Shown piece after piece: positions 1 to 32,224 of a stretch of DNA of 32,224 bases. Both the position numbers and the translations under genes were made by a program. Each line of letters opens with the position of its first letter. Position 1 is the first letter of the stretch. The notes under the pieces are model-generated. The model saw nothing but the letters and a program-made list of their open reading frames with translations, made no database searches and was not told where the DNA came from. The stretch spans positions 1 to 32,224 of the forward strand of contig JBIJBR010000002.1 in the NCBI GenBank assembly GCA_044345135.1. Reading direction: 5' to 3'. The stretch is from Vampirovibrionales bacterium (GTDB lineage: Bacteria; Cyanobacteriota; Vampirovibrionia; Vampirovibrionales; JAJTHC01).

Positions 1-11
1 GTAATGCCTCC

Positions 12-1694
12 ATGATTAAAACAACCCCCCAAGCGCCTTCCAACCCAACGGTTTCAACAATCGCTGTTCCCCTAGAACATTCAGCAGACCTGATTCGCAT
101 TGGCCTCAGTAATGATGCCATGACGGGTGTCTACCATTCCCGTCTCATTTTAAGTGCAGACGCGCCATTTTTTATTTCACTGGAAAAGGGCTTACCTCCT
201 GTTAAGCACTTTCAAGCGGGTGACGCTCTGCAATGGACGCTTGAAAATGGCCAGCTCCGTTTAGAGGTCCGCTATGCAGGACAAAGCACTTTTTATCCCT
301 TAACGTTAAATGAAATGACTCAAAACGCGTGGATACAACCCGACGCGTCTAACAGCTTTTTAAAGGTACTGAATATAACACGCAAAGGGGAAACGCCACG
401 GTATCGAGGGGTTTTACACGTGTTAGCTTCCCCTCAAACACCAAGTGCTGCTCGTTTACTGTTGGTGAATCAATTACCCATGCAAGATTATTTACGTGCG
501 GTGGTTCCCAATGAATTACCCATACGTTTTGGAGCTGAAGCGGTGAAAGCCCAAGCGGTGGCGGCTCGTAATTATGCCGTGCGTCCCCGTGAAAAAAAAT
601 GGTTTGATTTTGATTTGTGTGACAGTCAGATGTGCCAAGCCTATTATGGCCAACAAACCGAAACCCCTGAAACAGATGCCTTATTAAACGCCACCGAAGG
701 GCAAGTCCTCCTTTACGGGCCAGACGTGGCGCTCACCTTATATAGTTCTTCCCATGGGGGGGTGAGCACGCCGTATCATCATGCCTTTAGTGACCCTGTG
801 ACACAGGCGTTTCCTGCCCCTGCCTTGCCCTATTTAAAGTCCGTGTGGGATGATCCTCGAACCGCGCGTGCGTACCCAGATTTGTCTCATGAGGCGACTT
901 TTTTGGCCTATTTAAAGGATGATACCATCGCGAGTTTTGACCGTAAATCGCCGCATTTTCGCTGGAAGGAACAGTGGTACTTTACCGAAATGAGCGACGC
1001 AATGAAACGGTTCTTACCAGAAACCTTAAAACAGCCGTCTACCGCGCGATGGATTCATCCTGAAGGCTCTATTTTAAAAGAAGTTGGACAAGTCCGTGGT
1101 GTTGACGTGCTTGAACGAGATATCTCAGGCAAATTAATGCGTTTGAAAATCAGAACCACCACAGGAGCCGTCACCCTTAGCAAAGAACTTGTCATTCGTA
1201 GTGTCTTACGTGCTCCTCAAAAACGTTTGCTTTCTGCTAGTATTGCCTTTGAACCTTGGCGAGATGAAGACACTCAAAAAGTTAAAGGACTCACGATTTA
1301 CGGCACAGGTTTTGGACACGGAGTAGGCATGAGTCAGTTTGGAGCCAGTGGCATGAACGACTTGGGCTTTCAATACCCGGAAATTCTGAGTCACTACTAT
1401 CCACAAACCCGCCTAGGCAGTCAACCTCTACAGCTCAATGAACAGAGGCCTCAAGTGCAACAGGTGCACGGCATCCCCAAAAATCGAGTGATTTTACATC
1501 TTCAGTCACTCACAGGACGGGGGATGTCAGAGCCCCTGACTTTGCAGATCAACCAAGCCTCCTTACGGATGCAACCCTTTAGGAACAAGCAAAAGGCCTT
1601 TGATGTCACCCCTTACGTCGACGGAAGCTCCCTCAATACCTTGCATTGGCCCCCCATGAAAAACATGCGGGTGTGGTTAAGTTTCGAACCCTAA
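12..1694 (+). CDS. SpoIID/LytB-domain protein (peptidoglycan lytic transglycosylase-like); 5' end possibly outside window
   Basis: 560-aa ORF with SpoIID signature stretches AVKAQAVAARNYAV, DLCDSQMCQAYYG and GFGHGVGMSQFGA. There is no in-frame stop between the window edge and the ATG at 12, and no signal peptide, so the true start may lie upstream. Stop TAA. Confidence 0.8.
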   Translation: MIKTTPQAPSNPTVSTIAVPLEHSADLIRIGLSNDAMTGVYHSRLILSADAPFFISLEKGLPPVKHFQAGDALQWTLENGQLRLEVRYAGQSTFYPLTLNEMTQNAWIQPDASNSFLKVLNITRKGETPRYRGVLHVLASPQTPSAARLLLVNQLPMQDYLRAVVPNELPIRFGAEAVKAQAVAARNYAVRPREKKWFDFDLCDSQMCQAYYGQQTETPETDALLNATEGQVLLYGPDVALTLYSSSHGGVSTPYHHAFSDPVTQAFPAPALPYLKSVWDDPRTARAYPDLSHEATFLAYLKDDTIASFDRKSPHFRWKEQWYFTEMSDAMKRFLPETLKQPSTARWIHPEGSILKEVGQVRGVDVLERDISGKLMRLKIRTTTGAVTLSKELVIRSVLRAPQKRLLSASIAFEPWRDEDTQKVKGLTIYGTGFGHGVGMSQFGASGMNDLGFQYPEILSHYYPQTRLGSQPLQLNEQRPQVQQVHGIPKNRVILHLQSLTGRGMSEPLTLQINQASLRMQPFRNKQKAFDVTPYVDGSSLNTLHWPPMKNMRVWLSFEP

Positions 1695-1842
1695 GCAGGC
1701 ACTATAGTGTTTTTCAGCCAAAAATTGAAAGGTTTAACCCTTACACCAACCGACGTTCACGCAAAAATCCGAGCGGGTGAGCGGATTGCGAATCCCCGAG
1801 AGATTTTGCGGACGTCCGATGGGAGCGAGTGGGGCAAGCGAA

Positions 1843-1927
1843 AAGGAAGAGAAGGGGGGAGGATTTTCAAGGAGGGGGGAAGAGAAGGAGAGCCGCAACA
1901 ATTTCCTTTTCTTTCCCCCTCCTTGAA
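1843..1927 (+). repeat. Homopurine mirror repeat (1843-1862 / 1871-1890) followed by complementary homopyrimidine arm (1902-1924); long hairpin 1866-1927
   Basis: Read directly. aaggaagagaaggggggagg reversed matches ggaggggggaagagaaggag at 19/20 positions. 1866-1891 pairs with 1902-1927 over 26 bp, including 3 G-U pairs that are only valid on the + strand RNA. Confidence 0.8.
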
Positions 1928-1944
1928 CGGATTTAGAGGTGTTG

Positions 1945-1981
1945 GAGACCTTTTTCCGCGAAAAGGTCTCTGACGAGCGAC
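1945..1981 (+). repeat. Palindromic repeat element, degenerate copy (GAGACCTTTT-N6-AAAAGGTCTC + GACGAGCGAC)
   Basis: 10-bp stem with 6-nt loop. It shares the core and the 3' flank GGTCTCTGACGAG[C/T]GAC with the copy at 16962-17003. Confidence 0.75.
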
Positions 1982-2015
1982 CAGCTAAAAATGAAAGCCT
2001 GCCATATAAAGCGCT

Positions 2016-3767
2016 TTAAGCGTTCACATTGAGGGGCTTGGGAGGAGCCAGAGGTATAAGAGAAGCGTCGGGATGGGTCTTTGAATGATTAGGCTGGTCT
2101 AAAACATATTCCGCAGGATACATAGGGGCATCTCCCTGTTGAACATAAATATGCCCTTTCTTGGGATTGTCCACATTATCCGTTAAATAATGTTCTCTTT
2201 CCTGAATCGAAACCCCTGGGAACTGTTTGGCCAAAATGGATTCTGGCCCCGTTAAAGCCTCTACATGCCACGCCTGAGGACCCAAGTATTTTTGGGCCGT
2301 CTTTTCCACATCACCCGCGGAGACATTTAAATAACTTTCTTGTAAAGCTTGTCGGCTAATAGGGGGCAAGCCGTCTCGTAATCGATTAGACGTATTCGAC
2401 ATAATCCCTAGGCTGGTGACATCCGTGTCTCGCATGGTATGAATAATGCGTCGTTTGACTTTGTCCAGTTCTTGTTCAGAAGGAGCGGCTTTGACGTAAG
2501 TATTAATGGCATCTTGCTGACCGTCAATCGCCTCAGACAATTTATCCCCATCAATTTCTTCAGACACTTCATATTCACCATAGTGCTTATTCGATTCAAT
2601 GCCTGAAGACACGCTATAAACCAAACCTCGTTCCGTACGCATGGTTTTAAATAAAGACCCTGTCATTCCCCCCATCAGGTTTTTCATAATCACAAAGGAA
2701 GGGTGATCTTCCGTCCCGACTTCAGGTGCCTTCCACAAGGTGGACATATGCACGCGGTCCAGTCGGTTGTCAGACACCAGAATAGGGGTCTTAATATTTT
2801 TTTCTTTGACAGGTGGGATTTTAATCCCCGCCGTGGGAGGTGCGACCGTATCATTGGTTTTCCACGCTTTGTCTTGAGCCACTTGATTAAACAAAGACGC
2901 TTGCTGTTCAGGCGACAACGCCGAAACCATCGCGATTTGTGTGAGTTCAGGATGAGCGTAACTGGCTTTAAATTGTTGAATCGTCGCTTGAGGGTTCAGG
3001 GTTTGAACTTCCATAATGGTTTGCAAAGTCGATTTACTATAGGGGTGCCCCTCGCCCAATCTGGCTCGTTGTAGGCTTTCTGCTTTTTGAAAATCAGGCT
3101 TATTAGACAAATTCAATAAATTTTGCATCACAATGGTACGAGACGACTCATATTCTTTCTCATCCGTTTCAGGCGTTTTTAAAAAATCCAAACCCAAGGC
3201 CAAGAGTTTTTTCTCTTGGCCCGTAGGTCCATTCACCAGTAAAGTAAAATGGTCTTGCGTCACCAAACTTTCTACCGTAATGCCTTGGCCTTGTAAATCA
3301 GACAAAAGCTTTTTTTTCGCCAAGGTTCCATTTAATAACACACTATTGGACAAATGCATTTGCGCATCGTCTGGAAACAACGGCAGTACAAATTCCACAC
3401 AAGCTGTTGGACGGTTCAACGCCTGCTGAAAATACCCCTGTGCCCCATTCTTAAGCTTGATGGGGGTCATATCCCCAATGTCAGGGCTATTTTCTACATT
3501 AAGCGTGTTCATCATTAAAACAGGCTTGGCCCCATAAGGTTCTTCAGCCAGTTGTTGTAATAAAGCTCGTTCTTCCGCGCTATTGGGAATAATGTGTACC
3601 TTGGGGATATTGGGAATCGATTGGGGTTCCAAAACCGTTTGAGACGCGTCGTGAGATTGAATCGGCAACGGTAAGGGTTTCGCCGTGGAGGCGGGTGTGG
3701 GTAAATTAGTAGTGCTAGGGGGGTGAAGGGCAATCATATGAAAAATCCTTTTATCAAAAACGTTCAA
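2016..3767 (-). CDS. M16-family peptidase-like protein, probably non-catalytic subunit
   Basis: 583-aa ORF immediately downstream of the active M16 gene (15-nt gap). It has two-domain M16-like length and architecture, but the HxxEH position reads AQMHLSNSVLLNGT, so the zinc motif is lost. Long Pro-rich N-terminus, no signal peptide. Stop TAA. Confidence 0.6.
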   Translation of the reverse strand: MNVFDKRIFHMIALHPPSTTNLPTPASTAKPLPLPIQSHDASQTVLEPQSIPNIPKVHIIPNSAEERALLQQLAEEPYGAKPVLMMNTLNVENSPDIGDMTPIKLKNGAQGYFQQALNRPTACVEFVLPLFPDDAQMHLSNSVLLNGTLAKKKLLSDLQGQGITVESLVTQDHFTLLVNGPTGQEKKLLALGLDFLKTPETDEKEYESSRTIVMQNLLNLSNKPDFQKAESLQRARLGEGHPYSKSTLQTIMEVQTLNPQATIQQFKASYAHPELTQIAMVSALSPEQQASLFNQVAQDKAWKTNDTVAPPTAGIKIPPVKEKNIKTPILVSDNRLDRVHMSTLWKAPEVGTEDHPSFVIMKNLMGGMTGSLFKTMRTERGLVYSVSSGIESNKHYGEYEVSEEIDGDKLSEAIDGQQDAINTYVKAAPSEQELDKVKRRIIHTMRDTDVTSLGIMSNTSNRLRDGLPPISRQALQESYLNVSAGDVEKTAQKYLGPQAWHVEALTGPESILAKQFPGVSIQEREHYLTDNVDNPKKGHIYVQQGDAPMYPAEYVLDQPNHSKTHPDASLIPLAPPKPLNVNA

Positions 3768-3782
3768 TACGTTTGGGTGGTC

Positions 3783-5555
3783 TTAAGCGTGTAGATTTAA
3801 AGCGTGACGAGAGGACTTACGTTGAAGTTTAATATCTGATTTATCTACAGGATCACTGGGCTGATCACTGTTAGGAGCCGTAGGTGTTCCCTCCGTCAAG
3901 GGAGGTGAAAGTTCAGGTGTTTCAGTATGAGCAACTTGAGATTGAAAGCTAGGCAATACACCCATTACATTGGATGTTTTTTGACTTTCAAGCGCTTTTT
4001 CTCCAGGTAAGGCATAGGCCAACACATAGCTGTCGCCTTTCAGGTAGCATTGGGCATAGGCTTGAACATCTTCAGGTTGAAGCTTCTGAATTTCTCTTTC
4101 ATACTGCGTTAAATAATCCATTGAACCTGTCATGGCTTCCGTACCGATGGCGAAGCTAGAATCTTCCCCATGTTGTAAAGACATTTTATGTTGAATGATC
4201 AAGGTTTCTTTAATCGCCTGTAACTTTTCAGGGGTCATGGGGGTTTGGCCCACAGCTAAGAGTTCATTCATCAAAGCCTGCGCCGCTTTTTGTTCATGAC
4301 CTTCGAAGCTGTGCATCATAAACATACTCATACCCGTTTGTTTTTGGGGGCTATTGGCCATTGAAACATCCATGGCCAGGTGTTGTTCATCCACCAAGTG
4401 ACGATTAAGCGGAGAGAGTTCATCCCCCGTTAAGTAGACTTCCAAAATTTCTTGTAAGGCCCGTCCTTTCACATCCTTCTTTTTAGGACCTTCAAAACCA
4501 AGTAAGACCAAAGAAAGACCACTGAGCTTAGGGTCTATATACGTTTGTTCTCTAATTTCCTTAGGCTTTAAAGCCCATTTCAAACTCGCTTGATTCACGG
4601 GACTGGGCTGAGCCACCGCATGCCCAAATTCTTTGTTCATCAAGGGCAATACATCGCTAGGATTCACATTGCCTGATAAAACCGTCAGCATATTGGTGGG
4701 GGTATAAAAAGTCTTAAAAAATTGATCTAAGTCCTCCGCCGTGGTGGATTTAACATCCTCTCGGCTGCCCAAGGTTTGATAAGACACAGGGCGGTCAAAC
4801 ATCAGTTCAAAGCCTTTGTCCATTAAACGAAGGGTCGAACTTTCCAAGCGTTCACTGGCTTCATTCAATACATTTTTACGTTCTTGGTCAATATTTTTAG
4901 CCTCATAATGAGGATGTAAAACTTGTTCGGCATGGAGTTGTAGCATGCTCGGCAAGTCTTCGCGATTAAAGTGTAGTTCATGTTGGACTTCTTCATCACT
5001 GGTGCTCGCATTCAGCGAAACCCCATAGGCTTCAATATGTTCTACCCATTCATTTTTTTTAGGGAAATTTTGCGTCGTTAAGAAATGGCAATGTTCATCT
5101 AAGTGCGCAATCCCTGATTTAAAGCCTGTCTGAGGATATAAAGCACTCGGGTAAACGGCATTTTCATTGGCGGATCCCACCCGAATAAAGGTCCGTAAAC
5201 TCACAATGTTGTCGGGGCGTCGTTCAAAAAGCACTTGATGCCCATTCTTCAGTACGTAATGGTCTACTCGATTGCCATTGGGTAAACGAGTGGAAGGAAG
5301 GGTTTGAATCCCTAGTTTTTTGAGTGTCGCCTCTGAAGTTTCAGGCGTGCTCGCAGGCAAAGACCTTGTATTGCCGCGGGCATTTGGAGACGTATCCATC
5401 AAAGGGGCGAGTAAAGCAGGGGTTTCAAGCAAGGGGAGTTCACAAGGTTGCTGCTGACAAGGGGAAGCCTCCCGAAGGGCGGTTCCTGCAGATTTAGAAT
5501 AAGGAAAAGGTCCTGTCAATTGTGGAGAGATCATAAAATAAACATCCCTAATCAT
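3783..5555 (-). CDS. M16-family (pitrilysin/insulinase-like) zinc metallopeptidase
   Basis: 590-aa ORF with the inverted zinc motif GIAHLDEHCHFLTT (HLDEH at 5091-5105) and downstream NASTSDEE. About 100 aa of low-complexity N-terminus, so the start is uncertain. Stop TAA. Confidence 0.8.
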   Translation of the reverse strand: MIRDVYFMISPQLTGPFPYSKSAGTALREASPCQQQPCELPLLETPALLAPLMDTSPNARGNTRSLPASTPETSEATLKKLGIQTLPSTRLPNGNRVDHYVLKNGHQVLFERRPDNIVSLRTFIRVGSANENAVYPSALYPQTGFKSGIAHLDEHCHFLTTQNFPKKNEWVEHIEAYGVSLNASTSDEEVQHELHFNREDLPSMLQLHAEQVLHPHYEAKNIDQERKNVLNEASERLESSTLRLMDKGFELMFDRPVSYQTLGSREDVKSTTAEDLDQFFKTFYTPTNMLTVLSGNVNPSDVLPLMNKEFGHAVAQPSPVNQASLKWALKPKEIREQTYIDPKLSGLSLVLLGFEGPKKKDVKGRALQEILEVYLTGDELSPLNRHLVDEQHLAMDVSMANSPQKQTGMSMFMMHSFEGHEQKAAQALMNELLAVGQTPMTPEKLQAIKETLIIQHKMSLQHGEDSSFAIGTEAMTGSMDYLTQYEREIQKLQPEDVQAYAQCYLKGDSYVLAYALPGEKALESQKTSNVMGVLPSFQSQVAHTETPELSPPLTEGTPTAPNSDQPSDPVDKSDIKLQRKSSRHALNLHA

Positions 5556-5572
5556 TAAAGAGTAAGCCTATG

Positions 5573-5600
5573 TTGTATAGTGGCATAAACACCATAAAAT
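5573..5600 (+). promoter_or_regulatory. Candidate sigma70-type promoter upstream of flhB-like gene
   Basis: TTGTAT (5573-5578), 16-nt spacer, TAAAAT (5595-5600), about 105 nt upstream of the ATG at 5706. Sequence match only. Confidence 0.3.
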
Positions 5601-5705
5601 CTCAAATTGTGCTAGCGTTTATTTTAATCCCGTTTTATCTCCGTTAGACTTATGCTAGGATGAGGGAACAAAGATCATTCTCTAACCGCGTAAAGGGCAA
5701 GGCCA

Positions 5706-6806
5706 ATGGGTGATGAAGACAAATCCTTTGAAGCCTCTCAGCAAAAATTGCAACGCTTACGAGAATCGGGTCAAATCATTAAAAGCCGAGACCTTTCCTC
5801 CGCCTTGTTTTTGGCCATTATGTTTATTTTACTCTTAGCGCTGTCTCCCTTTGTGTTTCGAACGGTGGCGGATATGTTTGTGGTCTTTTTTAATTTAATC
5901 CCCCAACAACATTTGGAAGACATGGGCAAGTCCTTTTTAATTTTACAGAGTATTAAAGGATTATTACTGCCGACCTTACCCTTTTTAGCCTTGGCGTATT
6001 TTATCGCTTTTTTTGCCGATTTTTTACAAGTCGGGCCTCTCTTTGCCCTGAAATCAATTACCCCCAAACTCGATAAACTCAACCCCATTAACGGCCTAAA
6101 AGGGATTTTTTCTAAACGCACCGTGGTGGAACTGTTTAAAAACTTACTAAAAATTGGTATTTTATTTTACTTGGGTTATACCTCGTTCATGAAGCATTTG
6201 CCCGAAATGATTAACAGCATGCAGAGTGATCAACCGATGATTATTTTGTACTTGGTGGGAAAAATTTTACAAGATTTTATTTTCGTCGCCATTGTCTTTT
6301 TTATTATTATCGGTTTTGGGGATTATTTATACCAACGCACCAAATTTATGAATGACCAAAAAATGTCGCTTAAAGAAGTAAAAGACGAATACAAGCAGTC
6401 CGAAGGAGACCCTATGGTCAAGCATATGTTGAAGCAAAAACGTATGCAAATGATGATGCAACGCCAATTAGAAGCCGTCCCCACCGCGGATGTCATTACC
6501 ACCAATCCGATTCACGTGGCGGTGGCCTTAAAATATAAACCCAAAGAAATGGAAGCGCCGCTGGTCGTGGCCAAAGGAGCGGAACATTTTGCGGAACGTA
6601 TTAAAGCCATGGCGCGGGAACATAATATCCCCATTGTCGAAAATCCCGTACTGGCTCGTACCTTATACCGTGTGGTGGATGTCAATCAAGACATTCCCCC
6701 TGACCTGTACCAAGCCGTGGCAGAAATTTTAATGTTTGCGTGGCAAATGAAGGGAGACAGTCCCCTTCAAAAAGCCCAAGACGCCCTCCCAACAAGCAAT
6801 CCATAA
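5706..6806 (+). CDS. flhB: FlhB/YscU/SpaS-family type III export apparatus switch protein
   Basis: 366 aa. The N-terminus KSFEASQQKLQRLRESGQIIKSRDL is typical of the family. Four hydrophobic helices. The C-terminal domain TTNPIHVAVALKY...PLVVAKG...IPIVENPVLARTLY has the autocleavage motif as NPIH (6504-6515) rather than NPTH. Stop TAA. Confidence 0.85.
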   Translation: MGDEDKSFEASQQKLQRLRESGQIIKSRDLSSALFLAIMFILLLALSPFVFRTVADMFVVFFNLIPQQHLEDMGKSFLILQSIKGLLLPTLPFLALAYFIAFFADFLQVGPLFALKSITPKLDKLNPINGLKGIFSKRTVVELFKNLLKIGILFYLGYTSFMKHLPEMINSMQSDQPMIILYLVGKILQDFIFVAIVFFIIIGFGDYLYQRTKFMNDQKMSLKEVKDEYKQSEGDPMVKHMLKQKRMQMMMQRQLEAVPTADVITTNPIHVAVALKYKPKEMEAPLVVAKGAEHFAERIKAMAREHNIPIVENPVLARTLYRVVDVNQDIPPDLYQAVAEILMFAWQMKGDSPLQKAQDALPTSNP

Positions 6807-6834
6807 GAACACCGCACCCCCGCGTTTGAAGCAT

Positions 6835-7269
6835 TTAAACACAGGTGGGATGCGAAGTCAGCATCTCCAAAATAGTGGGAATTAGTAAGCGGCCTGCCTG
6901 TGATTTATTCACCGCACGAAAAGGGTGAGGCGGCACATCGGTGGAGCCACTCACGATAATGACGCGATCAGCGGGAAGGCCTTTTTGAATCCACGCCTCT
7001 ACCAAACGTAAGCCATCGCCCCCATGGGCCAATTGCCAATCCATGAGTAGGACATCAGGCCAGTGGGGTTCGCTTTGCTTCGCATTTAAAAGCAGCCAAG
7101 GCTGTGTTGCCTCTACAGAATCCGCGACTTGAAACACGACAGGGGTATTAAACGCCATACCTGCTAAAAGCTGAAAGGCTTCCTGCCATTTGGCTTCATC
7201 TTCCACAATCCAGACCCTCGGCGTGGCTGGTGATGAATCAACGCTATTTAAAAATGTGGCAGTATTCAT
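6835..7269 (-). CDS. Stand-alone response regulator receiver (CheY-like) protein
   Basis: 144 aa. VWIVEDE acidic pocket, phospho-acceptor Asp in VLLMDWQL, IIVSGS, and Lys in AVNKS. No output domain. Stop TAA. Confidence 0.75.
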   Translation of the reverse strand: MNTATFLNSVDSSPATPRVWIVEDEAKWQEAFQLLAGMAFNTPVVFQVADSVEATQPWLLLNAKQSEPHWPDVLLMDWQLAHGGDGLRLVEAWIQKGLPADRVIIVSGSTDVPPHPFRAVNKSQAGRLLIPTILEMLTSHPTCV

Positions 7270-7402
7270 TAAAGTTAATCCTTTTCCTCAATAAGCTAAC
7301 CTTGAGGTGTACATTACCTATACGGTACCAAAATACAGGAAACCGTACCTCCCCTATATGGGGGAATCCATTCCAGTTTACCCAATACGCAAAACGGCAC
7401 GC

Positions 7403-8944
7403 TTAAATTTGAACACTCAAGACCAAGTAACGTATCATGGCTTGATGATAAGCTTGTTCCGATTCAATGACCTTACGAAAGGCCTCCGTACTTTCACGTT
7501 CACGCAAGTTTAACACAAACAGGGTGCTGTCCCCTAATTCAAATTGTGTGCGCTCTCCAGCTTCTAAGGCTTGGGCGGTTTTCCACTCTCCCGTCGCGGC
7601 GGTATACATCACATATTGAGCCTCTAAATCGGCGAGCGTCTGTTCTAAGTCGGCCATCAATGCTTGATACACCAACACGTATTCAAGGTCCAAAGCCTCT
7701 AAATTCAATTCCCCTATACGAAGCTTGCCTTTGGCCATTCGATTACGCAAAGGCAATTCATACTTGACTCCAGCTTTTAAGGCGGGACCAATGCCATTGT
7801 CTCCCGTTTGAAAACTGGGGCTTAAAAAAGCATCCAGCTTGGGAAGCAAGGCCTGTTTAGCCAGAGCGACATCCAACTGCGCAATGTCTTTGCTAATGGG
7901 AAAGCTCAACAAGCGAGGGTGCCGTTGCACCATCGACAATCGTGCAGATTCAGACAAATCGCTTCGCTTGGGAGCCAGAGGCTGAGGCAAATGTAGTTCT
8001 GGCGGGGTCCACGTGTCACTAAAGTCCAAACGACCTTTCGTGTAAGCCTCATTCCATAATAAAAGGCTCAGCTTAATACGGGCTTTCTGTACATTTAAGG
8101 TATCCTTGGCCAATTGGCCTTGCCGTTTCTGAACTTCTTTTTGAACCTCTATATTGGCGATAGTAGGCAAATCTCCCGCAGAAACCCGTTTTTGAACTTG
8201 AAGCACTCGCGTTTGCCCCAAGCGTAATAACTGTTGACTCGTCATTTGCAAACGTTGACTCGCCACCCATTCCCAATAGGCATCGCCCATTTTTTGTTGA
8301 AGCTGTAATTCTTTTTCTTGAAGCCCTAAAGCCGCTTGTTGAAGTTCTAAAACCGCTTGTTTTTCAGCGACACTAAAGGGGTTAATCTGACGATATCGCC
8401 ATAACGGCAATAAAAGATTGGTATAAAATTCGCCGCCATCCCCCACAGGAGAAACACTAGAAGACAAATCACCACGGGCCGTTCGGTAGCCCCCTTCCAG
8501 CTGAAGGCCGTAACGCGTCAGCACACTCAACGCCGTGTCTGACAAAAAACTTTCTTTCGCTTGACCTGGAGCGGATGAATTATTATAGCGTCTAAACTCA
8601 GCATTGCCGCTTAACTTAGGGTCAAAAGCCCCTTGGCTCACCAAAAGCTTGGCTTGCGCTGTTTGCATTTTTAAACGAGCCAAGCGTAGCTCTGGGTGCG
8701 TTTGCTTCACCCACATCAGTGCTTGCCGTAATTGGAGTCCTTCCTGTGGATTCACCACCAACTGAGTCAGGGGTTCAAGTCCTGCTGGGGAAGAATAAAT
8801 GAAGGTTACGGGACTTAAATCCACCTTAGGCGCGTGAGGCGAATGTTTAGACCACGCCATAGCCCCCCCTAAGACAGAAAAGACAAGCCCCCAAACGCCG
8901 CCCCATACCAAAACGAAATAAGTCTTATTTCTGTTTACCCGCAT
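7403..8944 (-). CDS. TolC-family outer membrane efflux/secretion protein
   Basis: OEP-type helical repeats, e.g. LQLRQALMWVKQTHPELRLARLKMQTAQAKLLVSQGAFDPKL. The ORF opens at 8983, but the ATG at 8944 gives a good signal peptide (MRVNRNK, hydrophobic core, AMA) and has GGAGA upstream. It overlaps the hlyD-like stop by 20 nt. Stop TAA. Confidence 0.75.
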   Translation of the reverse strand: MRVNRNKTYFVLVWGGVWGLVFSVLGGAMAWSKHSPHAPKVDLSPVTFIYSSPAGLEPLTQLVVNPQEGLQLRQALMWVKQTHPELRLARLKMQTAQAKLLVSQGAFDPKLSGNAEFRRYNNSSAPGQAKESFLSDTALSVLTRYGLQLEGGYRTARGDLSSSVSPVGDGGEFYTNLLLPLWRYRQINPFSVAEKQAVLELQQAALGLQEKELQLQQKMGDAYWEWVASQRLQMTSQQLLRLGQTRVLQVQKRVSAGDLPTIANIEVQKEVQKRQGQLAKDTLNVQKARIKLSLLLWNEAYTKGRLDFSDTWTPPELHLPQPLAPKRSDLSESARLSMVQRHPRLLSFPISKDIAQLDVALAKQALLPKLDAFLSPSFQTGDNGIGPALKAGVKYELPLRNRMAKGKLRIGELNLEALDLEYVLVYQALMADLEQTLADLEAQYVMYTAATGEWKTAQALEAGERTQFELGDSTLFVLNLRERESTEAFRKVIESEQAYHQAMIRYLVLSVQI

Positions 8945-10409
8945 TACTTTTGAGGTCTCCAAATTTAACCGTCTTTTCATCATTAAGCATTTTAGTCGGA
9001 TACGTCCCCGAACTATTCGTGGCTTTCACATTGTCAATCGCACTATTGACAGGAGGGGGCTTTTTCTGAAGATTAAGCTGAAATCCGTTAAAGCGACGCC
9101 ATAATTCATAGCCCAGTGGAACTTCATCCAACATGACCCAACCCAAGGCTTGGGTGCCGTAACGCAGGTGTTCATTTTCAGGCCACGGTTCTTCTTTTTT
9201 GGCTTGAATCGCTTTAAAATCAGGCACGACCAAGACCCGAAAACGATTTTGTCCATCATCAACGGCATCAATCACCTGAATGCGTCCTGCAAAGGTTCCC
9301 AACGCAGCTTTTGGCCAGCCTGAAAATTGAACGGCGGGAAAACCCGCAAATTGTAAGCGAACCAAACGCCCAACAGACAATAAGGGGGCATCGACATCAC
9401 TAAAAAACAAGGTCACCATGCGGTCTCCTGCCTGTGGAACCACCACGGCGAGTTCATCGCCTTCTTTCACGGTTTGCCCTCCACCATAGACCGAAGTCCG
9501 TACCAAGCGGCCTGTCACAGGGGAACTAATGCGTCGTTGGGCGTAGCGTTGACGCAGATTTTCTAAGTCATTGTCTAGCTTAAGCAATTCCGCAGTGGCC
9601 TTGGCATGCTCTTGTGCGGCTTTGGCAATTTTGGCGTTGACTTCCGTTAATTTAGCCCCCAGTTCCAAGCGGAATTTTCCTCTGTCAAAATCCGCGCCAA
9701 GCGTGGCTTGTTTGGCCCCTTCTAAATCGGCTTGAGACGCCTGATACTTACTCTGCGCGTTGACCCACTGATTATTCGCCAGTTCTAAGTCTCGTTTACT
9801 TTTTAGGCCTTCATCATACAATTTTTGAGTTCGTTTTTGAAACAGCGTCGCAGTTTCAAATTCTTTTTGGGCGGCTTGAATACTTTGCACTCTGGCAGAG
9901 ACTTTGGCTTTATTTTCTTGCACTTTGGCGGTGGCACTACCCATCACGGCGCCCTGACTACTGGCAATTACGGCATATTGAGATTCAAGCGCCTCTAACT
10001 GCAAAGTGGCGCTTTTTACTTGGAGGGCTTGGGCGTCTCGCATGGCTTGCAATTTATCCAACTGCGTTTCATCCAAATAAGTATTTTTAATTTCCTTAAG
10101 TTGAAGTAATGCCTGCCCTTTTTTGACCCATTGCCCTTCCTGAACCAGCCATTGTTCAATTCGAGCATCAATAGGAGCTTGAACCGTCTGGGGTCGATGC
10201 ATGGGATTCAAGGTACTCACTTCCCCCACGCCGGAAACAGATTGTTGCCAAGGCACAAAAGCCAAACCTAAAATCCCCAAAAAAACAGTCAGTATCAACG
10301 CCATAGACAAATAACGCATAGAGGCAGGCGTGTTAACCATACGAGCCGACTGCACCTGTGCCAAGGCTTCCATACTTTCCACCTGTCGTTTACTGAGCAT
10401 AATCGGCAT
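8925..10409 (-). CDS. HlyD-family type I secretion membrane fusion protein
   Basis: 494 aa. N-terminal TM anchor, lipoyl-like hairpin (PIDARIEQWLVQEGQWVKKGQALLQL) and a long coiled-coil middle. Its start lies 3 nt after the ABC gene stop. Stop TAA. Confidence 0.8.
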   Translation of the reverse strand: MPIMLSKRQVESMEALAQVQSARMVNTPASMRYLSMALILTVFLGILGLAFVPWQQSVSGVGEVSTLNPMHRPQTVQAPIDARIEQWLVQEGQWVKKGQALLQLKEIKNTYLDETQLDKLQAMRDAQALQVKSATLQLEALESQYAVIASSQGAVMGSATAKVQENKAKVSARVQSIQAAQKEFETATLFQKRTQKLYDEGLKSKRDLELANNQWVNAQSKYQASQADLEGAKQATLGADFDRGKFRLELGAKLTEVNAKIAKAAQEHAKATAELLKLDNDLENLRQRYAQRRISSPVTGRLVRTSVYGGGQTVKEGDELAVVVPQAGDRMVTLFFSDVDAPLLSVGRLVRLQFAGFPAVQFSGWPKAALGTFAGRIQVIDAVDDGQNRFRVLVVPDFKAIQAKKEEPWPENEHLRYGTQALGWVMLDEVPLGYELWRRFNGFQLNLQKKPPPVNSAIDNVKATNSSGTYPTKMLNDEKTVKFGDLKSNAGKQK

Positions 10410-10412
10410 GGC

Positions 10413-12176: not shown

Positions 12177-12193
12177 TAAAACCGTTACACTTT

Positions 12194-12225
12194 CTTATTC
12201 TACTTCAGACTTCTTCTACTTCAGA
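12194..12225. repeat. Tandem 16-nt direct repeat (CTT[A/C]TTCTACTTCAGA x2) in divergent promoter region
   Basis: Read directly. 12194-12209 and 12210-12225 differ at one position. The repeat lies between the ABC operon start (12176) and the bolA-like start (12339). Confidence 0.8.
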
Positions 12226-12338
12226 ATACTTCCCCTATCTTAAACCGATTTTCCTTTTTTGTGTCAAACTTATTCAGGTATAAACAAGAATTACTCTAAA
12301 CTTAGGATAAACCCCCAAGCGTAAAGGAACTCCCTCGC

Positions 12339-12575
12339 ATGATTAGCCCCAATGACTTAACGCAACACCTCAAAAACGCCTTTCCCGACGCCCATCTTGA
12401 AGTCTTTGACAAAACAGGTGAGCAAGACCACTATATCGTCTATATTCGATCCGCCGAATTCTTGGGGAAAAATACATTAGCCTGCCATAGACTTGTACAA
12501 AGCGTTTTAGCGCCTTTAATTCAAACAGGCCAGCTACACGCCAGCGAAATCAAAACCGCCACGCCTGAATCCTAA
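12339..12575 (+). CDS. BolA/IbaG-family protein
   Basis: 78 aa. HLEVFDKTGEQDHY...SAEFLGKNTLACHRLVQSVL matches the BolA F-x-G...RH-x-x-V pattern. Stop TAA. Confidence 0.7.
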   Translation: MISPNDLTQHLKNAFPDAHLEVFDKTGEQDHYIVYIRSAEFLGKNTLACHRLVQSVLAPLIQTGQLHASEIKTATPES

Positions 12576-12632
12576 ACGAAGGCTCATTTTGACACAAAAA
12601 ATATCCTTTTATGAGCTGAAGCTCGACACGCG

Positions 12633-12935: not shown

Positions 12936-12996
12936 ATGAAAGACTCCTCATGAGTTTGAAATGATCTAAACAAGTCAAGCGTTAGGTCAACACGAC

Positions 12997-13794: not shown

Positions 13795-13923
13795 CCAAAA
13801 ACCTCTTCACTTTCATGCGGATTGACGTCATAGACTTCTTGATGATAGCGTTAAGTCAACTTTTATTCAATGCCTCCACGTAGGAACAGAATGTTTATTT
13901 TTAAGAATAAGAGGTCTGCTTCA

Positions 13924-20367: not shown

Positions 20368-20370
20368 TTT

Positions 20371-20811
20371 ATGATGATGGCCAGTCCCGAAGAAGATTTT
20401 AAACGCTTTCTCAATACCTTTATGAACAATCAATTTGGGGAAGCCTTTGACATGTTTTCCAAAGAAACACGCGACTATTTTTTAAAGTATACCTTTGACT
20501 TATTGACCAAGCGCAATAAAGAAGCAGTTGAAACGTCTGGCATTGGCTTAAAAGAAGTGCATATGATGTTTCGTATGAACGAAAAAACCTTGATTCATAC
20601 CTTTTGGAAGACGTTTTATTTTAGCAGTGGGACTCAAGAACTTTATCAATTTGGAAGCTACGCCCTGAACGGCATTCAAGGGGATAAGGCGGCCATTTCA
20701 TGCCGTTTACAGTACCCCAATGGCCAACAAGGCGAAGTGGATATTTGTATGGTCAAAGAAGGCACGGCGTGGAAATACGGCTATATTGAATCAGGGATGA
20801 AGCTAAACTAA
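20371..20811 (+). CDS. Hypothetical protein, possibly NTF2-like fold
   Basis: 146-aa ORF starting 3 nt after the ATPase stop. The C-terminal ...VDICMVKEGTAWKYGY resembles NTF2-like/DUF4878 endings, which is weak evidence. Stop TAA. Confidence 0.45.
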   Translation: MMMASPEEDFKRFLNTFMNNQFGEAFDMFSKETRDYFLKYTFDLLTKRNKEAVETSGIGLKEVHMMFRMNEKTLIHTFWKTFYFSSGTQELYQFGSYALNGIQGDKAAISCRLQYPNGQQGEVDICMVKEGTAWKYGYIESGMKLN

Positions 20812-22499: not shown

Positions 22500-23543
22500 A
22501 TGATGACGGTTGAATCCCCCCAAGCCCTAAAAGTGTATTATGACCAAGACATTGATCGCAGTAAGTTGTTGTCTAAAAACATTGCCGTGATTGGTTTTGG
22601 TAGTCAAGGCTTTGGACAATCCGTGAACCTTAAGGACGCGGGCGCCAAGGTGAAAATCGTTTTGCGTGCAGGGTCTAAAACCGCTGAAAAAGTAAAAGCC
22701 AACGGCATGGAAAGTATCACCTTTGAAGAAGCGGCTCAATGGGCGGATATTATCCTCTTCTTATGTCCTGATGTCGTGCAAGCCGACGTTTACCAACAGT
22801 ACTTTGAAGGCAAGCTCCGTAAAGGGCAAGCCTTGATGTTTAGCCACGGCTTTGCCATTCACTTTGGCTATATTACTCCCCCTGCGGATGTTGACGTCTT
22901 TTTAGTCGCACCCAAAGGGCCTGGTCACTTGGTGCGTTCAGAATATGAACGCGGTCGTGGTGTGCCTTGCTTAATGGCGATTCAGCAAGACGCCAGTGGC
23001 GAAACCAAAGAAATTGCCCTAGGCTATGCGGCCTGTGTGGGCGGTGGTCGTGGGGGTGTGATTGAAACCACCTTTAAAGATGAAACCGAAACAGACCTTT
23101 TTGGCGAACAAGCCGTGCTTTGTGGCGGGGCCGCAGCCTTGGTGAAAGCGGGCTTTGAAGTGCTCACCGAAGCAGGGTATCCCCCTGAAATGGCGTACTT
23201 TGAATGTTTGCATGAATTAAAGCTCATTGTGGATTTGATGTACGAAGGGGGCCTCGACGATATGCGCTATTCCATTAGCGATACCGCTCGTTATGGGGAT
23301 GTGACGCGTGGGCCTCGTGTGGTGGATGCCGACACGAAAGCTCGCATGAAAGTGATTTTAAAAGAAATTCAAGACGGCACCTTCGCTCGAGAGTTTACCG
23401 CGGATGTTCGCGCGGGTATGCCTCAACTCAAAGCCTTGGTGGAAGCGGATTCTAATCACCCGATTGAAGTGACCGGTCGCAAGTTGCGTGGCATGATGAG
23501 CTGGCTCAGCGAATCTAAAAACGTTCAACGCGACAAAAACTAG
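22500..23543 (+). CDS. ilvC: Ketol-acid reductoisomerase (class I)
   Basis: 347 aa. IAVIGFGSQG Rossmann motif, SHGF, LVAPKGPGHLVR, DLFGEQAVLCGG, YFECLHELKLIVDL. AAGGAG SD 7 nt upstream. Stop TAG. Confidence 0.95.
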   Translation: MMTVESPQALKVYYDQDIDRSKLLSKNIAVIGFGSQGFGQSVNLKDAGAKVKIVLRAGSKTAEKVKANGMESITFEEAAQWADIILFLCPDVVQADVYQQYFEGKLRKGQALMFSHGFAIHFGYITPPADVDVFLVAPKGPGHLVRSEYERGRGVPCLMAIQQDASGETKEIALGYAACVGGGRGGVIETTFKDETETDLFGEQAVLCGGAAALVKAGFEVLTEAGYPPEMAYFECLHELKLIVDLMYEGGLDDMRYSISDTARYGDVTRGPRVVDADTKARMKVILKEIQDGTFAREFTADVRAGMPQLKALVEADSNHPIEVTGRKLRGMMSWLSESKNVQRDKN

Positions 23544-23736: not shown

Positions 23737-23778
23737 CTGTACAGTCCTCTTTTTAATTAGGGTATATGACTTTTGCTT

Positions 23779-26574
23779 ATGTCTCGCACTTTAGCTCCGC
23801 CTTCCATCACCTCCTGTATAGCGTTTCCTCTGGTACATTTTGAGGTAAGTGGACTTTGCCTGACGGGGGAACCTTTAAATCTCAAAAATCTTCGCTCTCA
23901 TGAAGCCTCTCTTCTTGAAGCAGGACTAGTGAATAAAGGTCATGAATGGCAGGTTCTTCACAAATTTTTGACTTTAGGACAAAGCCGAACCCTTCTTTTA
24001 TTAGGCGATGAGGGCGTTGGTAAAACGGCCTTATTAAATGCTTTTTTCAAATCCGCCAACACCCTAGGCTCGGATGAATTTTCTCAGCATCAAGGGGTTA
24101 AAATCCACCTAGGTAAGCTACCTAAAAAGGCGTGGACGCAGTGGGAACTTGATCAGTTACTTCAAGAGGCGCTTCATCAATGGGCGACAGAGCTACTGCA
24201 GTCTCTACACATGCAAGGCAATAAGACTTTACACTCCACGGGTTTGATCCTTTCAGAGGCGGAATTAAATCAGACCTTGAAAGAAGCCATTTCCTTAACG
24301 CTTCAAGAAGAACGCACGACGCTGTGGCAAACGGTCTTAACACAAGCCCTTGCGAAACGGCAAAATACTTTAGCACAATGGATGAAAAGTGGACAGGCCT
24401 CCATCACGGCGGCAGGGTCTGTTTTTAATCATCCGTGGGGACTAATTGCCTTTAAAATGAAAGAGGCTTTAGAAGATCCTCATATGCAAGGCTCTATCTA
24501 TGAAATTATTGCGCAACTGGGTCGAGACTTAAAGCACTATAGCCCTACGCTTGAAACGAAGAGTCGTTTTAGCATTATTATTGATGAATGGGAGATGTTA
24601 CTTCATCAAAAAGAAGCACAACAATGGCAAAATTTACAGTGCTTGTCTCAGATACTTAAAAGCATCAATACGCAAAAAAGAATGCCTTTACAACTTATAT
24701 TGGCCACCCGCAGCGAGGCCTTGTCTCAACAACTCGCCTTAGGCACCTATGGTTTATTTTCAGAACAAATGCTGCTTTCTGGCTTTACCGCGAAAGAGCT
24801 TCCTGCGCTTTTAGCGCTTTATCCCAGTACATATCCCTTCCCCATGGAATACTTAGACGAATTTTACGCGCGTTCAGGCGCGTCTTCACGAGCGATTTTT
24901 CGTCTCTTTCAAGCGTGGGAAGCAAAAGCAACACAACGGGGAGAAAAGACTTTAAGCTTAGACGCTTTAAACGATTTAGCCGTTAAAGGTGTTCAAGACT
25001 TAGATGATTTTATTTATGCGCGTTTTCATATGGATGCTTTACAATACGGTATGCCCTTTCTAAAGGCCTTAGAAGTTGTCGTGGCTTATTTAGATGAAGT
25101 CCCGTTTTTGGTGCGTGATTTTATCGCCCAGCGATTGTCCGAAACACAGGAAAATCTTAGCGAAGAATATTTAGCACTCGCTTTGCGAAAATTATTTTTG
25201 TATGGGGTCCTGACGGCTCTACCGAATGAGTCTTCTTTTGAGCAGGAGCCTCGCTATGTCATGAGCTCTCGCGCTGATTTAAAAAGAGTCGCTTTGTTTT
25301 TTAGAAACACGGACTGTGGCGAGCCGTTCAATGCAACCGAAGGCTCTATTGAGGATCGCCTCCAACAGGAGTGTGCCTCCTTTCTCTCTAGCATGACAGC
25401 TCCGACCGAATCCTTAATGGCTTGGCTTCCTAAACTCTTTGAAGCAGGAGACTGTACCCCTAAAAAAATAAGTCATCTCTTAAATCATATGGCTCATTCC
25501 TCTAATATAGAAGCCAATGTATTTATTGATACCTTACTGAGCTTTTTCAAAGAAAAATGGGAAAACGCTCAAAACACTGAACATTGCTCTAAGGCACTGA
25601 TGATTTTAAGTGTTCTGCCTCGAATAGAAGCCTTTAATGCCTTGCTGGACGCCTTAGCACATGCTGAATTCAAGGTAAAAGTAAGCAGTTTAAACGCGCT
25701 ACAGATATGGTTGAACCGTTATGCAGAGACGAATCCTTATACGGTGGCGTCTTTGATCTCTACGCTAATGACGCATCTTTACTCTTGGGAACATCTCCCC
25801 GTGAATGAAAAAGAGTGCTTACAAAATCTCGTCTTTGACCTTTTGACGAGAGTGTATCCCTATGCACCCAAAAAGGTGGTCAACGCATTCAATGAAATCA
25901 TCAATACGCTTCTTATAGAAGAAAATTCAGAAAAGTCTTATTTAAGTGTCGAATGCTTCAATGCGTTGTCTACTATCGTTAAGAATACCGCGCCAGATAT
26001 TTTGATACAAGCCTTACCTAAGGTGGCTCAAGTATTAAAGCTCGCTTTGAATCAGCCTGATTTGAAGGATCAAGCTTTAAATCTTTTGTCTTATCTCCCC
26101 CCTCAAACCCCTGATCTACATGATTTTCTGGGGGGAATGGATGATCAAGCCAGTGCTCCTTTAGGCGCCTTTGAGGTTTTTGTCTATGCCAGTCAGCATT
26201 TAAACGCATCACCCGCACTACAAGAAAGAGTTATGGCCACGCTAAAAGCAATTTATACAAATGAAAATCTTATTGAACGCTTAAAACATTCTGAATTTCG
26301 TCAGTATTTTACGCAAATCACCTTGCAACTCTTAAAAGTAAGTAAACAGTGGCCTCAAGTGAATCAATGTTTCTTATTGACGCTTTTAGAACAGGTACTT
26401 CGTGAAGCCATTTGGCAAGACTATTTAGATTTATTTTGGTTGTCCCTACGTTTAGTGAGACAACTTAAAGGAAGTATTCCGCGTGATGCCTACGCATGGA
26501 TAGAGACCTTGGAAACAAGTCCTACGTCCCAATTAGTAAAACGGCTTTTGAAACAATCAGAACTTGATGTTTAA
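23779..26574 (+). CDS. Large P-loop NTPase (STAND/AAA_16-like) with C-terminal HEAT/ARM-like helical repeats
   Basis: The ORF opens at a TTG at 23773; the ATG at 23779 is preferred. Walker A GDEGVGKT (24004-24027), Walker B IIIDE (24574-24588), then LILATRSE. The C-terminal ~400 aa is helical-repeat-like, e.g. EAFNALLDALAHAEFKVKVSSLNALQIWL. Stop TAA. Confidence 0.7.
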   Translation: MSRTLAPPSITSCIAFPLVHFEVSGLCLTGEPLNLKNLRSHEASLLEAGLVNKGHEWQVLHKFLTLGQSRTLLLLGDEGVGKTALLNAFFKSANTLGSDEFSQHQGVKIHLGKLPKKAWTQWELDQLLQEALHQWATELLQSLHMQGNKTLHSTGLILSEAELNQTLKEAISLTLQEERTTLWQTVLTQALAKRQNTLAQWMKSGQASITAAGSVFNHPWGLIAFKMKEALEDPHMQGSIYEIIAQLGRDLKHYSPTLETKSRFSIIIDEWEMLLHQKEAQQWQNLQCLSQILKSINTQKRMPLQLILATRSEALSQQLALGTYGLFSEQMLLSGFTAKELPALLALYPSTYPFPMEYLDEFYARSGASSRAIFRLFQAWEAKATQRGEKTLSLDALNDLAVKGVQDLDDFIYARFHMDALQYGMPFLKALEVVVAYLDEVPFLVRDFIAQRLSETQENLSEEYLALALRKLFLYGVLTALPNESSFEQEPRYVMSSRADLKRVALFFRNTDCGEPFNATEGSIEDRLQQECASFLSSMTAPTESLMAWLPKLFEAGDCTPKKISHLLNHMAHSSNIEANVFIDTLLSFFKEKWENAQNTEHCSKALMILSVLPRIEAFNALLDALAHAEFKVKVSSLNALQIWLNRYAETNPYTVASLISTLMTHLYSWEHLPVNEKECLQNLVFDLLTRVYPYAPKKVVNAFNEIINTLLIEENSEKSYLSVECFNALSTIVKNTAPDILIQALPKVAQVLKLALNQPDLKDQALNLLSYLPPQTPDLHDFLGGMDDQASAPLGAFEVFVYASQHLNASPALQERVMATLKAIYTNENLIERLKHSEFRQYFTQITLQLLKVSKQWPQVNQCFLLTLLEQVLREAIWQDYLDLFWLSLRLVRQLKGSIPRDAYAWIETLETSPTSQLVKRLLKQSELDV

Positions 26575-30752: not shown

Positions 30753-30755
30753 GCC

Positions 30756-30781
30756 TTGAATAAGGCTTAAGTCTTATTCAA
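30756..30781 (+). terminator. Hairpin just after ubiD stop (possible terminator)
   Basis: Perfect 9-bp stem TTGAATAAG / CTTATTCAA with an 8-nt loop. It is AT-rich and has no immediate T-tract, so support is weak. Confidence 0.3.
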
Positions 30782-31020
30782 CCGCTGTGGTTTTGCGACG
30801 ACTATTGCCTAAAGTGACGCGAGCGACTCGTGAACGTGCTGTGCTTTTCGACGATAGCGAAGGGGTTTTGTAAAGTTATTTTAAGGGATCTTCTCAATCG
30901 GCGCACTAAAATACATTGACACGGTTTTCTCTACTTAAGCGCATTATTTTTTCGTAAAATAGGCGATCTTTTCTGTCCCTTTCATTTTCTTGTCCCTCTA
31001 AACGATAGGTATGTTTATTT

Positions 31021-31839
31021 ATGTCTACCCTCCCTCCCTCCTCTACTTCTGCAAAGACTACTTTGCCCTTAACGCATCAATTCAAGGGTGACCCAAATCA
31101 TCCTTTATTTGTGAATGATTATTCAGAAGCAATTCCAAGAAGAAAGGGACTTGTGGGTTACTTTTTCCCAAAGAATTTTTATCCTGGCGCTGTCCCTAAG
31201 AACCATCCTTCATCTTCAAAGATTAAAAAAAATGAAACGGAACTATTCAATATATGGCGTCCTCTGAAATTTTCTCCAAGACTCTACAGAACACAAGATG
31301 TTTTACAGTCTACACAAGTTACTGACAGAGAGGCCTTAAAGCATTTGGTTCGTATGTTTCCCACTGAAGAACGACCAAGAACGATTGCAACAGTAGCGGA
31401 TGCCGTTGACACAGTTGAAATGGACCAAATAGCCAAGGGTTTAAAAAACAGAGATATCCCGATGGAGATACTGAGTACGGCAGTCCATCGATATCACTCA
31501 GAACACCCTTTTAACCTTTCGCATTGGTCGTGGCTTCCTGCTGGTTTGGGCTCACTACTTTCGATTATTTCAGCCCTCACCTTTGGTTCTGGAGAAATCT
31601 CGTTTCCTTTATTAGGGACAGGCATTTTTACTGCCTTTAAATTGGAGTCTGAGCATACGAAGAGAGCCCAAAAAAGAGATCATCAATTGCTCCGTTTAAA
31701 GCTATACATGGGTATGCAAACAAAACAAGACAAGCTTAAAGAGTCAAGCGTCACCCTTCCACTTGAGAAGATGAAGAAGCTGGAGAAAGAGGGACAAAAA
31801 TCTTTGAAACGCTTACCAGCGTCTTATTTTAAAATATAA
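31021..31839 (+). CDS. Hypothetical protein with bilobed hydrophobic segment (ORFan)
   Basis: 272-aa ORF with an ATG start. One ~38-aa hydrophobic block split by GSGE (WSWLPAGLGSLLSIISALTFGSGEISFPLLGTGIFTAF, 31525-31638), with basic helical flanks. Stop TAA. Confidence 0.5.
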   Translation: MSTLPPSSTSAKTTLPLTHQFKGDPNHPLFVNDYSEAIPRRKGLVGYFFPKNFYPGAVPKNHPSSSKIKKNETELFNIWRPLKFSPRLYRTQDVLQSTQVTDREALKHLVRMFPTEERPRTIATVADAVDTVEMDQIAKGLKNRDIPMEILSTAVHRYHSEHPFNLSHWSWLPAGLGSLLSIISALTFGSGEISFPLLGTGIFTAFKLESEHTKRAQKRDHQLLRLKLYMGMQTKQDKLKESSVTLPLEKMKKLEKEGQKSLKRLPASYFKI

Positions 31840-32013
31840 GAGACGTTTCTCTTCTTCTGCTAGTCGTCGGGAGAGGCTTAGGCTTGATGCTCAAGCTTCA
31901 TCTTACCTTGCATGGGAGCGTTGGTTTTCGCCGATAAATCCTGCTTTGACTTTGTCGAAGCAGCCCCATTTGGGACACTGCATTTTATAATACTCCTTAG
32001 CTAGTGTCGACAT

Positions 32014-32224
32014 TTATTTAAGCCACAAACAAACAGAAGCAAGATGAACAAAAGACAAATAAGCCACATCTCATTTATCGTAACGGGTTGCCATTCGCCT
32101 GAAATTTTTAAGGTCTTTAAACAAGTTTTCTACCAAGTGGCGAGCCTTGTAAAGGAAGTAATCGACTTGACGAGGCGCCACCGCATTGCTTTTATTGGGG
32201 ATGACCACTTCAGCCCCCATGAGG
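32014..32224 (-). mobile_element. IS5-family (DDE_Tnp_1) transposase, C-terminal fragment running off the window, with in-frame TGA
   Basis: The minus-strand translation is ...VIPNKSNAVAPRQVDYFLYKARHLVENLFKDLKNFRRMATRYDK[TGA]DVAYLSFVHLASVCLWLK-TAA. The YK-x-R-x-x-VE-x-x-F...L-K-x-F-R-R-x-ATRYDK...LW pattern is the classic IS5-family C-terminus. The TGA is at 32071-32073. Confidence 0.7.

Follow-up and report, generated by a model that had tools for sequence, protein, structure and literature searches.

The contig JBIJBR010000002.1 of assembly GCA_044345135.1 (Vampirovibrionales) raises the question of whether UGA still functions as a stop codon in its lineage: none of its 25 coding sequences (CDSs) ends in TGA. 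The window analysed here is this whole metagenome contig, 32,224 nt in length. The initial annotation of the window held that TGA is never used as a terminator and that UGA may be unassigned, very rarely read, or in the course of reassignment. We conclude that the species very probably uses the standard code with strong, lineage-wide avoidance of TGA: all three stop codons (TAA, TAG, and TGA) end real genes at conserved C-termini in the species or its relatives, and TGA is absent as a sense codon.

By sequence comparison, the contig is assigned to a Vampirovibrio species (Vampirovibrionales; Vampirovibrionia/Melainabacteria), a predatory relative of cyanobacteria among the non-photosynthetic Cyanobacteriota. 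The flagellar export protein FlhB (window 5706-6806) has 99% identity to a protein of CP050876.1, the complete 2,037,776-nt chromosome of the Vampirovibrio sp. isolate OL03a metagenome-assembled genome (MAG), and the remaining FlhB matches are all to MAGs of Vampirovibrionales, Gastranaerophilales, Caenarcanales, or other Melainabacteria. These matches overturned an early suspicion of an environmental chlamydia, which had been prompted by the Pfam content (SpoIID, a YscU/FlhB-family protein, HtrA, and M16 peptidases). Nucleotide identity to CP050876.1 is 95-96% over window positions 1-16265, and the window and OL03a are thus conspecific or close to it.

Of the 25 CDSs, 18 end in TAA, 7 in TAG, and none in TGA, and every stop position in the initial annotation was recovered. 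The TGA trinucleotide is common in the window, as had also been remarked: within genes it is the commonest off-frame stop trinucleotide (TGA 654, TAA 385, and TAG 234 over the two off-frames), and between genes it occurs 112 times vs 86 for TAG. The four open reading frames (ORFs) that had been set aside as spurious (1707-1973, 3133-3429, 5771-6121, and 7546-7767) all do end in TGA, and of the window's 40 non-gene ORFs (60 aa or longer) TGA closes 13 (33%), TAG 12, and TAA 15 (Fisher P = 0.001 vs genes). With a G fraction of 0.258 at the two-fold purine-ending (R-ending) sites of the window, a pan-bacterial model predicts 62% TAA, 16% TAG, and 22% TGA (Povolotskaya et al., 2012; PMC3549826), under which the probability of 0 TGA stops in 25 is 0.0023. 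The deficit is therefore improbable at usual TGA usage, as first proposed.

TGA does serve as a stop in this lineage. Walking outward along the OL03a chromosome by way of proteins in common with the window added 20 OL03a genes outside it; OL03a GroEL was retrieved with a chimeric GroEL + MetH query, which allowed a walk of 10 kb upstream (OL03a MetH was not returned). One of the added genes, flgN (locus L126, 1848-2381; 177 aa), situated ~12.5 kb upstream of the point that matches the window start, ends in TGA. Its product aligns with positions 6-146 of the 147-position PF05130 profile, and the terminal TGA is followed by a second TGA four codons later and by the first TAA 15 codons on. A 177-aa flgN is also called in a second conspecific MAG, GCA_041447075.1 (gene call only).

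Conserved genes with TGA stops were likewise identified in close relatives, among them L031, L033, and L011, which come from genomes with a UbiD 86-87% identical to that of the window. In L031, murJ ends in TGA, with a further stop close behind (TGA TTT TAA), and in L033 a PBP2-type transpeptidase ends “...VPE TGA” where its L031 ortholog ends “...LPE TAG”, the C-terminus being conserved. In L011, from the same MAG as L033, nuoJ (PF00499) ends TGA TGA TGA, overlapping the nuoK ATG, and the gene for acireductone dioxygenase (PF03079, profile matched to its end) also terminates at TGA; in L040 the TGA of a 766-aa ORF overlaps the following ATG. More distant Vampirovibrionales use TGA for 5 of 17 genes, ubiD included (L034, 50% GC), for 5 of 22 on a 2.87-Mb contig (L037, 53% GC), including genes for a class-I aminoacyl-tRNA synthetase of the Glu/Gln type and a purC-type SAICAR synthase, and for 2 of 17 in L035. 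These genes run counter to the stronger parts of the initial annotation: TGA cannot be described as never used when OL03a flgN and the murJ, PBP2, nuoJ, and acireductone dioxygenase genes of relatives end in it; an unassigned UGA is not supported, given that flgN of CP050876.1, from a sister strain and not from the contig of the window, ends in TGA; and reassignment is not borne out by relatives whose conserved genes end in TGA, or by other Vampirovibrionales in which the TGA share reaches 24%.

The weaker part, that TGA is very rarely used, proved right. Counting ORFs of at least 100 aa together with the called OL03a genes, we obtained the following frequencies of TGA stops:

Window species: 1/45, 2% (95% confidence interval 0.06-12%)
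Close relatives: 8/136, 5.9%
Species and close relatives together: 9/181, 5.0% (binomial P = 6e-10 vs 21.6%)
Other Vampirovibrionales at ~43% GC: 2/40, 5%
Vampirovibrionales at 50-53% GC: 9/37, 24%

The fetched loci are mostly syntenic for the query gene alone, which makes the counted genes largely independent. In the clade at ~43-47% GC, TAG accounts for ~30-35% of stops and TGA for 2-6%. TGA stops being rare genome-wide, the absence of TGA from 25 genes is an ordinary sample of an atypical genome, with a probability of 0.22-0.57 at the clade rates of 2-6%.

Regarding the cause of the avoidance, TAG outnumbers TGA about six-fold among the stops of the clade (51 vs 8; sign test P = 9e-9). Given that TAG and TGA are identical in base composition and TAG is the commoner at stops, while TGA is common off-frame and between genes, the bias is specific to the position of termination; from this specificity and the imbalance between TAG and TGA, we infer that TGA is avoided through selection against UGA termination. 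We also infer that release factor 2 (RF2) is present in the species. Selection of this kind could arise if RF2-dependent termination were weak or leaky, or if the supply of release factor 1 (RF1) exceeded that of RF2, and inertia from a low-GC Melainabacteria ancestry possibly underlies it.

Certain points weigh against the reading of a standard code with avoidance of TGA. The species-level sample is small, at 45 genes with one TGA, and that sole TGA stop lies in the OL03a strain, off the contig of the window. Several of the TGA-ended genes have another stop close behind (as in the TGA TTT TAA of murJ), and a backup stop of this kind would also be tolerated in a genome that reads TGA poorly. 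Of the eight TGA-ending ORFs in the relatives, three are without a Pfam match and could be miscalled. In addition, a scan of all fetched loci for the GGQ motif of release factors detected no release-factor gene in any melainabacterial locus; the only hit was a release factor on an unrelated contig of 65% GC, probably RF1 as judged from the motif context.

The best-surviving alternative, which we nonetheless regard as unlikely, is that the rarity of TGA is a by-product of base composition and of descent from low-GC Melainabacteria, with TGA following GC and with no selection on termination. Composition does contribute, given that within the order the use of TGA rises with GC, from 11/226 at 43-47% GC to 9/37 at 50-53% GC (Fisher P = 4.5e-4). 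TGA is also scarce (8-9%) in the low-GC Gastranaerophilales and Caenarcanales loci, and in a control set of 80 metagenome loci encoding the closest available GatB relatives (48-57% identical, retrieved with gatB of locus L039) it climbs from 7% to 43% with GC. In the same GC bin, however, TGA makes up 16% of stops in the control loci but 5.6% in the clade (Fisher P = 0.004). Composition also does not account for the roughly six-fold excess of TAG over TGA at stops when TGA is the more frequent trinucleotide off-frame and between genes. Moreover, switches between TAA and TAG are frequent among orthologs and switches from TAA to TGA nearly absent: of 32 Vampirovibrionales ortholog families, TAA and TAG are mixed in 9 and TGA is found in none, compared with 4 of 24 families that include TGA in Gastranaerophilales and 7 of 20 in the Caenarcanales group.

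Slightly less probable again is that UGA has in effect lost its assignment or is in the course of losing it, RF2 having been lost or crippled, with stops purged and the remnants tolerated where read-through or ribosome rescue is harmless. This could be envisaged as a free-living, mid-GC lineage with a 2-Mb genome early in the loss of UGA, with RF2 weak or poorly expressed, TGA at ~2%, and the surviving TGA stops backed by nearby stops, a scenario to which we likewise assign little credence. Such a lineage would constitute a natural “codon capture” intermediate outside the tiny genomes of symbionts. Consistent with this are the TGA counts themselves (0/25 in the window and 1/45 for the species), the disfavour shown to TGA at stops though it is common elsewhere, neighbouring genes that shun the usual ATGA overlap, and the stops found shortly behind the remaining TGAs of murJ and flgN. 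The conspecific flgN, however, has its TGA at the end of the Pfam domain, and to skip it a ribosome would have to pass two TGAs and add 15 residues. The essential genes murJ, PBP2, and nuoJ have TGA stops in genomes with a UbiD 86-87% identical to that of the window, with the C-terminus of PBP2 conserved up to its TGA. The use of TGA at 24% in distant members of the order indicates that RF2 is ancestral there, and 0/25 is unremarkable at the rate of the relatives.

A sampling fluke from a genome with an ordinary ~20% TGA is very improbable; the window count does rest on 25 genes only, but the 9/181 TGA stops of the species and close relatives depart strongly from 21.6%, the 20 extra OL03a genes brought only one TGA, and 33% of the spurious ORFs of the window have a TGA stop. 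The initial annotation was accordingly correct to look beyond chance in a normal genome.

That TGA is a very rare sense codon (code 4, code 25, or a new assignment) is hardly tenable: the one in-frame TGA in a recognisable CDS, that of a transposase fragment at 32071-32073, corresponds to TTA (Leu) in a 96%-identical copy and not to a Trp or Gly position; the 9,562 codons of the 25 CDSs include 110 TGG and no TGA; these CDSs span 89% of the window under translation table 11; no TGA-joined split gene free of a longer overlapping ORF in another frame was found in the window and 17 Vampirovibrionales loci (~300 kb); and neither the window nor 27 related loci, which represent a small part of any genome, yielded a tRNA with anticodon UCA. 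The few tRNAs in the related loci are ordinary. The earlier judgement against an established code-4 or code-25 genome stands, based on the lack of split genes and of in-frame TGA in conserved genes; its companion statement, that supported CDSs lack in-frame TGA, holds for all 25 but overlooked the partial transposase ORF.

This ORF belongs to an IS5-type insertion sequence (IS) inside which the contig ends. Another copy, recovered from the same JGI sample (L039, 1-197), is 96% identical over 197 nt and has TTA (Leu) at the codon in question; from there its transposase frame runs on for 19 more codons, Leu included (“LDVAYLSFVHLASVCLWLK”), to a TAA, and the full-length frame correspondingly ends at the TAA at window 32014-32016. 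The TGA of the window is thus a premature stop in one copy of the IS, arising from a single T-to-G difference. For the same reason the fragment was rejected as a native TGA-terminated gene, the frame of the L039 copy having TTA at this point and continuing to its TAA. The flank of the L039 copy differs from that in the window and carries gatB, which places the IS at a minimum of two sites in this population. A protein search for further copies gave two fragments only, and an exact-DNA scan of metagenome contigs gave none. In the distant Vampirovibrionales locus L034, a DDE_Tnp_1 transposase gene (9215-9640) adjoins ubiD, and the element in the window is located ~1.2 kb downstream of its ubiD. 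Between the L034 transposase element and the window IS, no similarity at the nucleotide level was detected.

A screen of 42,109 genomes for UGA-to-Trp reassignment found it in four phyla, with cyanobacteria unmentioned in the main text (PMC13092985), and cyanobacteria are also unmentioned in the main text of the gTranslate preprint, in which the prediction of translation tables was tested on 250,583 genomes. We found no literature on stop-codon usage, prfB, or the genetic code in Vampirovibrionia, and in a published survey of prfB the term “Melainabacteria” occurs only within an NCBI group name.

Among known systems, the present case most resembles ordinary bacterial variation in stop-codon usage, with which it shares the standard code, three working stops, a preference for TAA, and a rise of TGA with GC within the order. 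In such genomes TAG is held at ~20% at any GC and TGA rises with GC (Povolotskaya et al., 2012, PMC3549826; Ho and Hurst, 2021, PMC8789281); here the relation of TAG to TGA is reversed, with TAG at ~30-35% and TGA at 2-6% at 45% GC. The case is filed as stop-codon usage bias under table 11, although the size and direction of the bias are unusual. Genomes with UGA reassigned to Trp (table 4), known from most Mycoplasmatota, from several insect endosymbionts, and from some Eggerthellaceae and Minisyncoccia, resemble it in that TGA has nearly gone from gene ends. These genomes have many in-frame TGAs at Trp, usually with a tRNA-Trp(UCA) and usually without prfB (PMC12421855; gTranslate preprint), whereas here no in-frame TGA occurs and conserved genes end in TGA. 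UGA-to-Gly genomes (table 25; Absconditabacteria/SR1 and Gracilibacteria) have no or very few TGA stops, but in-frame TGA is abundant in them and they possess a tRNA-Gly(UCA); neither feature was seen here.

Transitional or mixed cases such as Ca. Stammera capleta and Ca. Providencia siddallii are comparable in that very few TGA stops would be expected early in “codon capture”. These are tiny, AT-rich genomes of host-restricted symbionts in which TGA is already aligned to Trp; in contrast, the species considered here has a 2-Mb genome of 45% GC with flagellar genes, no sense TGA, and a flgN ending in TGA. The plastid genome of Chlamydomonas reinhardtii (~70 genes) is not known to use UGA as a stop or to contain the codon at all. 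It resembles the present case in its cyanobacterial lineage and in having stops read by RF1, and it differs in that UGA here is rare but present.

Should the reading of a standard code with avoidance of TGA hold, this lineage has TGA far below and TAG far above what GC predicts, the opposite of the usual bacterial pattern, and it provides a data point for the debate on release-factor supply vs other forces in the choice of stop codons. No new genetic code is revealed. Genes in this lineage are correctly called with table 11, and zero TGA stops on one contig should therefore trigger no alternative-code call.

The genes of the window are as follows; 16 of the 25 CDSs have Pfam matches:

1-1694, plus strand: SpoIID-family CDS (PF08486), 5′-truncated by the contig end; stop TAA at 1692-1694
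2016-3767, minus strand: M16 peptidase-like CDS; stop TAA
3783-5555, minus strand: M16 peptidase CDS; stop TAA
5706-6806, plus strand: flagellar export protein FlhB (the CP050876.1 match given above); stop TAA
6835-7269, minus strand: response-regulator receiver CDS; stop TAA
7403-8983, minus strand: TolC-like outer-membrane factor, a 526-aa ORF; stop TAA
8925-10409, minus strand: HlyD-type membrane-fusion protein; stop TAA
10413-12176, minus strand: ABC exporter with transmembrane and ATPase domains; stop TAA, 3 nt ahead of the next ATG and without an ATGA overlap
12339-12575, plus strand: BolA-like CDS; stop TAA
12633-12935, minus strand: thiamine-binding protein (PF01910), 100% identical to the OL03a protein; stop TAG
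12997-13794, minus strand: DeoC/LacD-type aldolase; stop TAG
13924-14523, minus strand: hypothetical CDS of 199 aa, absent from OL03a; stop TAA, with TGA directly after
14783-16165, plus strand: MiaB-type radical-SAM methylthiotransferase; stop TAA
16182-16682, minus strand: hypothetical CDS; stop TAG
17176-17922, plus strand: hypothetical CDS; stop TAA
17936-19156, minus strand: HtrA/DegP protease; stop TAA
19321-20367, plus strand: oligopeptide-type ABC ATPase; stop TAG, 3 nt ahead of the next ATG
20371-20811, plus strand: hypothetical CDS; stop TAA
20862-22268, minus strand: hypothetical CDS of 468 aa; stop TAG
22500-23543, plus strand: ketol-acid reductoisomerase IlvC; stop TAG
23773-26574, plus strand: AAA_16-type ATPase of 933 aa; stop TAA
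26592-27356, minus strand: hypothetical CDS; stop TAA
27466-28962, minus strand: hypothetical CDS of 498 aa; stop TAA
29178-30752, plus strand: UbiD-family decarboxylase of menaquinone biosynthesis; stop TAG
31021-31839, plus strand: hypothetical CDS of 272 aa; stop TAA
31990-32224, minus strand: right end of the IS5-type element with the 3′ part of its DDE transposase gene, running off the contig; in-frame TGA at 32071-32073

The first CDS (12-1694) has a correct stop in the initial annotation, and its 5′ end is cut by the contig end (the OL03a ortholog has 591 aa). The TolC-like gene probably starts ~41 codons downstream of the ORF start, judging by the OL03a gene, which is called at 485 aa vs the 526-aa ORF here. 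With a 485-aa start of the OL03a type, the TolC-like and HlyD-like ORFs no longer overlap; their 59-nt overlap is probably an artefact of choosing the first ATG.

Two co-directional gene pairs, at 10409-10413 (TAA GCC ATG) and 20367-20371 (TAG TTT ATG), are spaced by 3 nt and leave the common ATGA overlap unused, which fits avoidance of TGA at both pairs. ATGA overlaps do occur in relatives (nuoJ/nuoK of L011, and L040). No tRNA genes or Rfam families were matched in the window.

Synteny with OL03a stops just past the MiaB-type gene (window ~16265 onward vs L121 1-7500). Beyond this point OL03a has a diacylglycerol kinase gene, uvrC, a RelA/SpoT-like gene, and metH, while the window has hypothetical genes, htrA, an ABC ATPase gene, ilvC, and ubiD; no OL03a UbiD is present among the best 120 UbiD matches. 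Within the syntenic part, a ~920-nt stretch of the window (13877-14798) that holds the 199-aa gene corresponds to ~166 nt in OL03a (L004, 18151-18317), a strain-specific insertion or deletion. The same 199-aa gene is also found on other contigs of the window-type strain (L122, and an 83.9-kb contig of GCA_041447075.1).

In the window, flhB stands alone amid non-flagellar genes: those for M16 peptidases, a response regulator, and a type-I-secretion-like ABC/HlyD/TolC trio. In OL03a, flgN and flgK (L126, 1848-3963) lie ~11-12.5 kb upstream of the point that matches the window start. Based on the isolation of flhB and the distance of kilobases to flgN and flgK, the flagellar genes are scattered. 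Across the Vampirovibrionales, synteny at the FlhB locus is confined to flhB itself. Four of the records retrieved with FlhB (L012, L017, L018, and L028) are titled “Gammaproteobacteria bacterium” or “uncultured Muribaculaceae bacterium”, yet both their FlhB and its neighbours are melainabacterial, and the MAGs behind them are probably mislabelled or chimeric.

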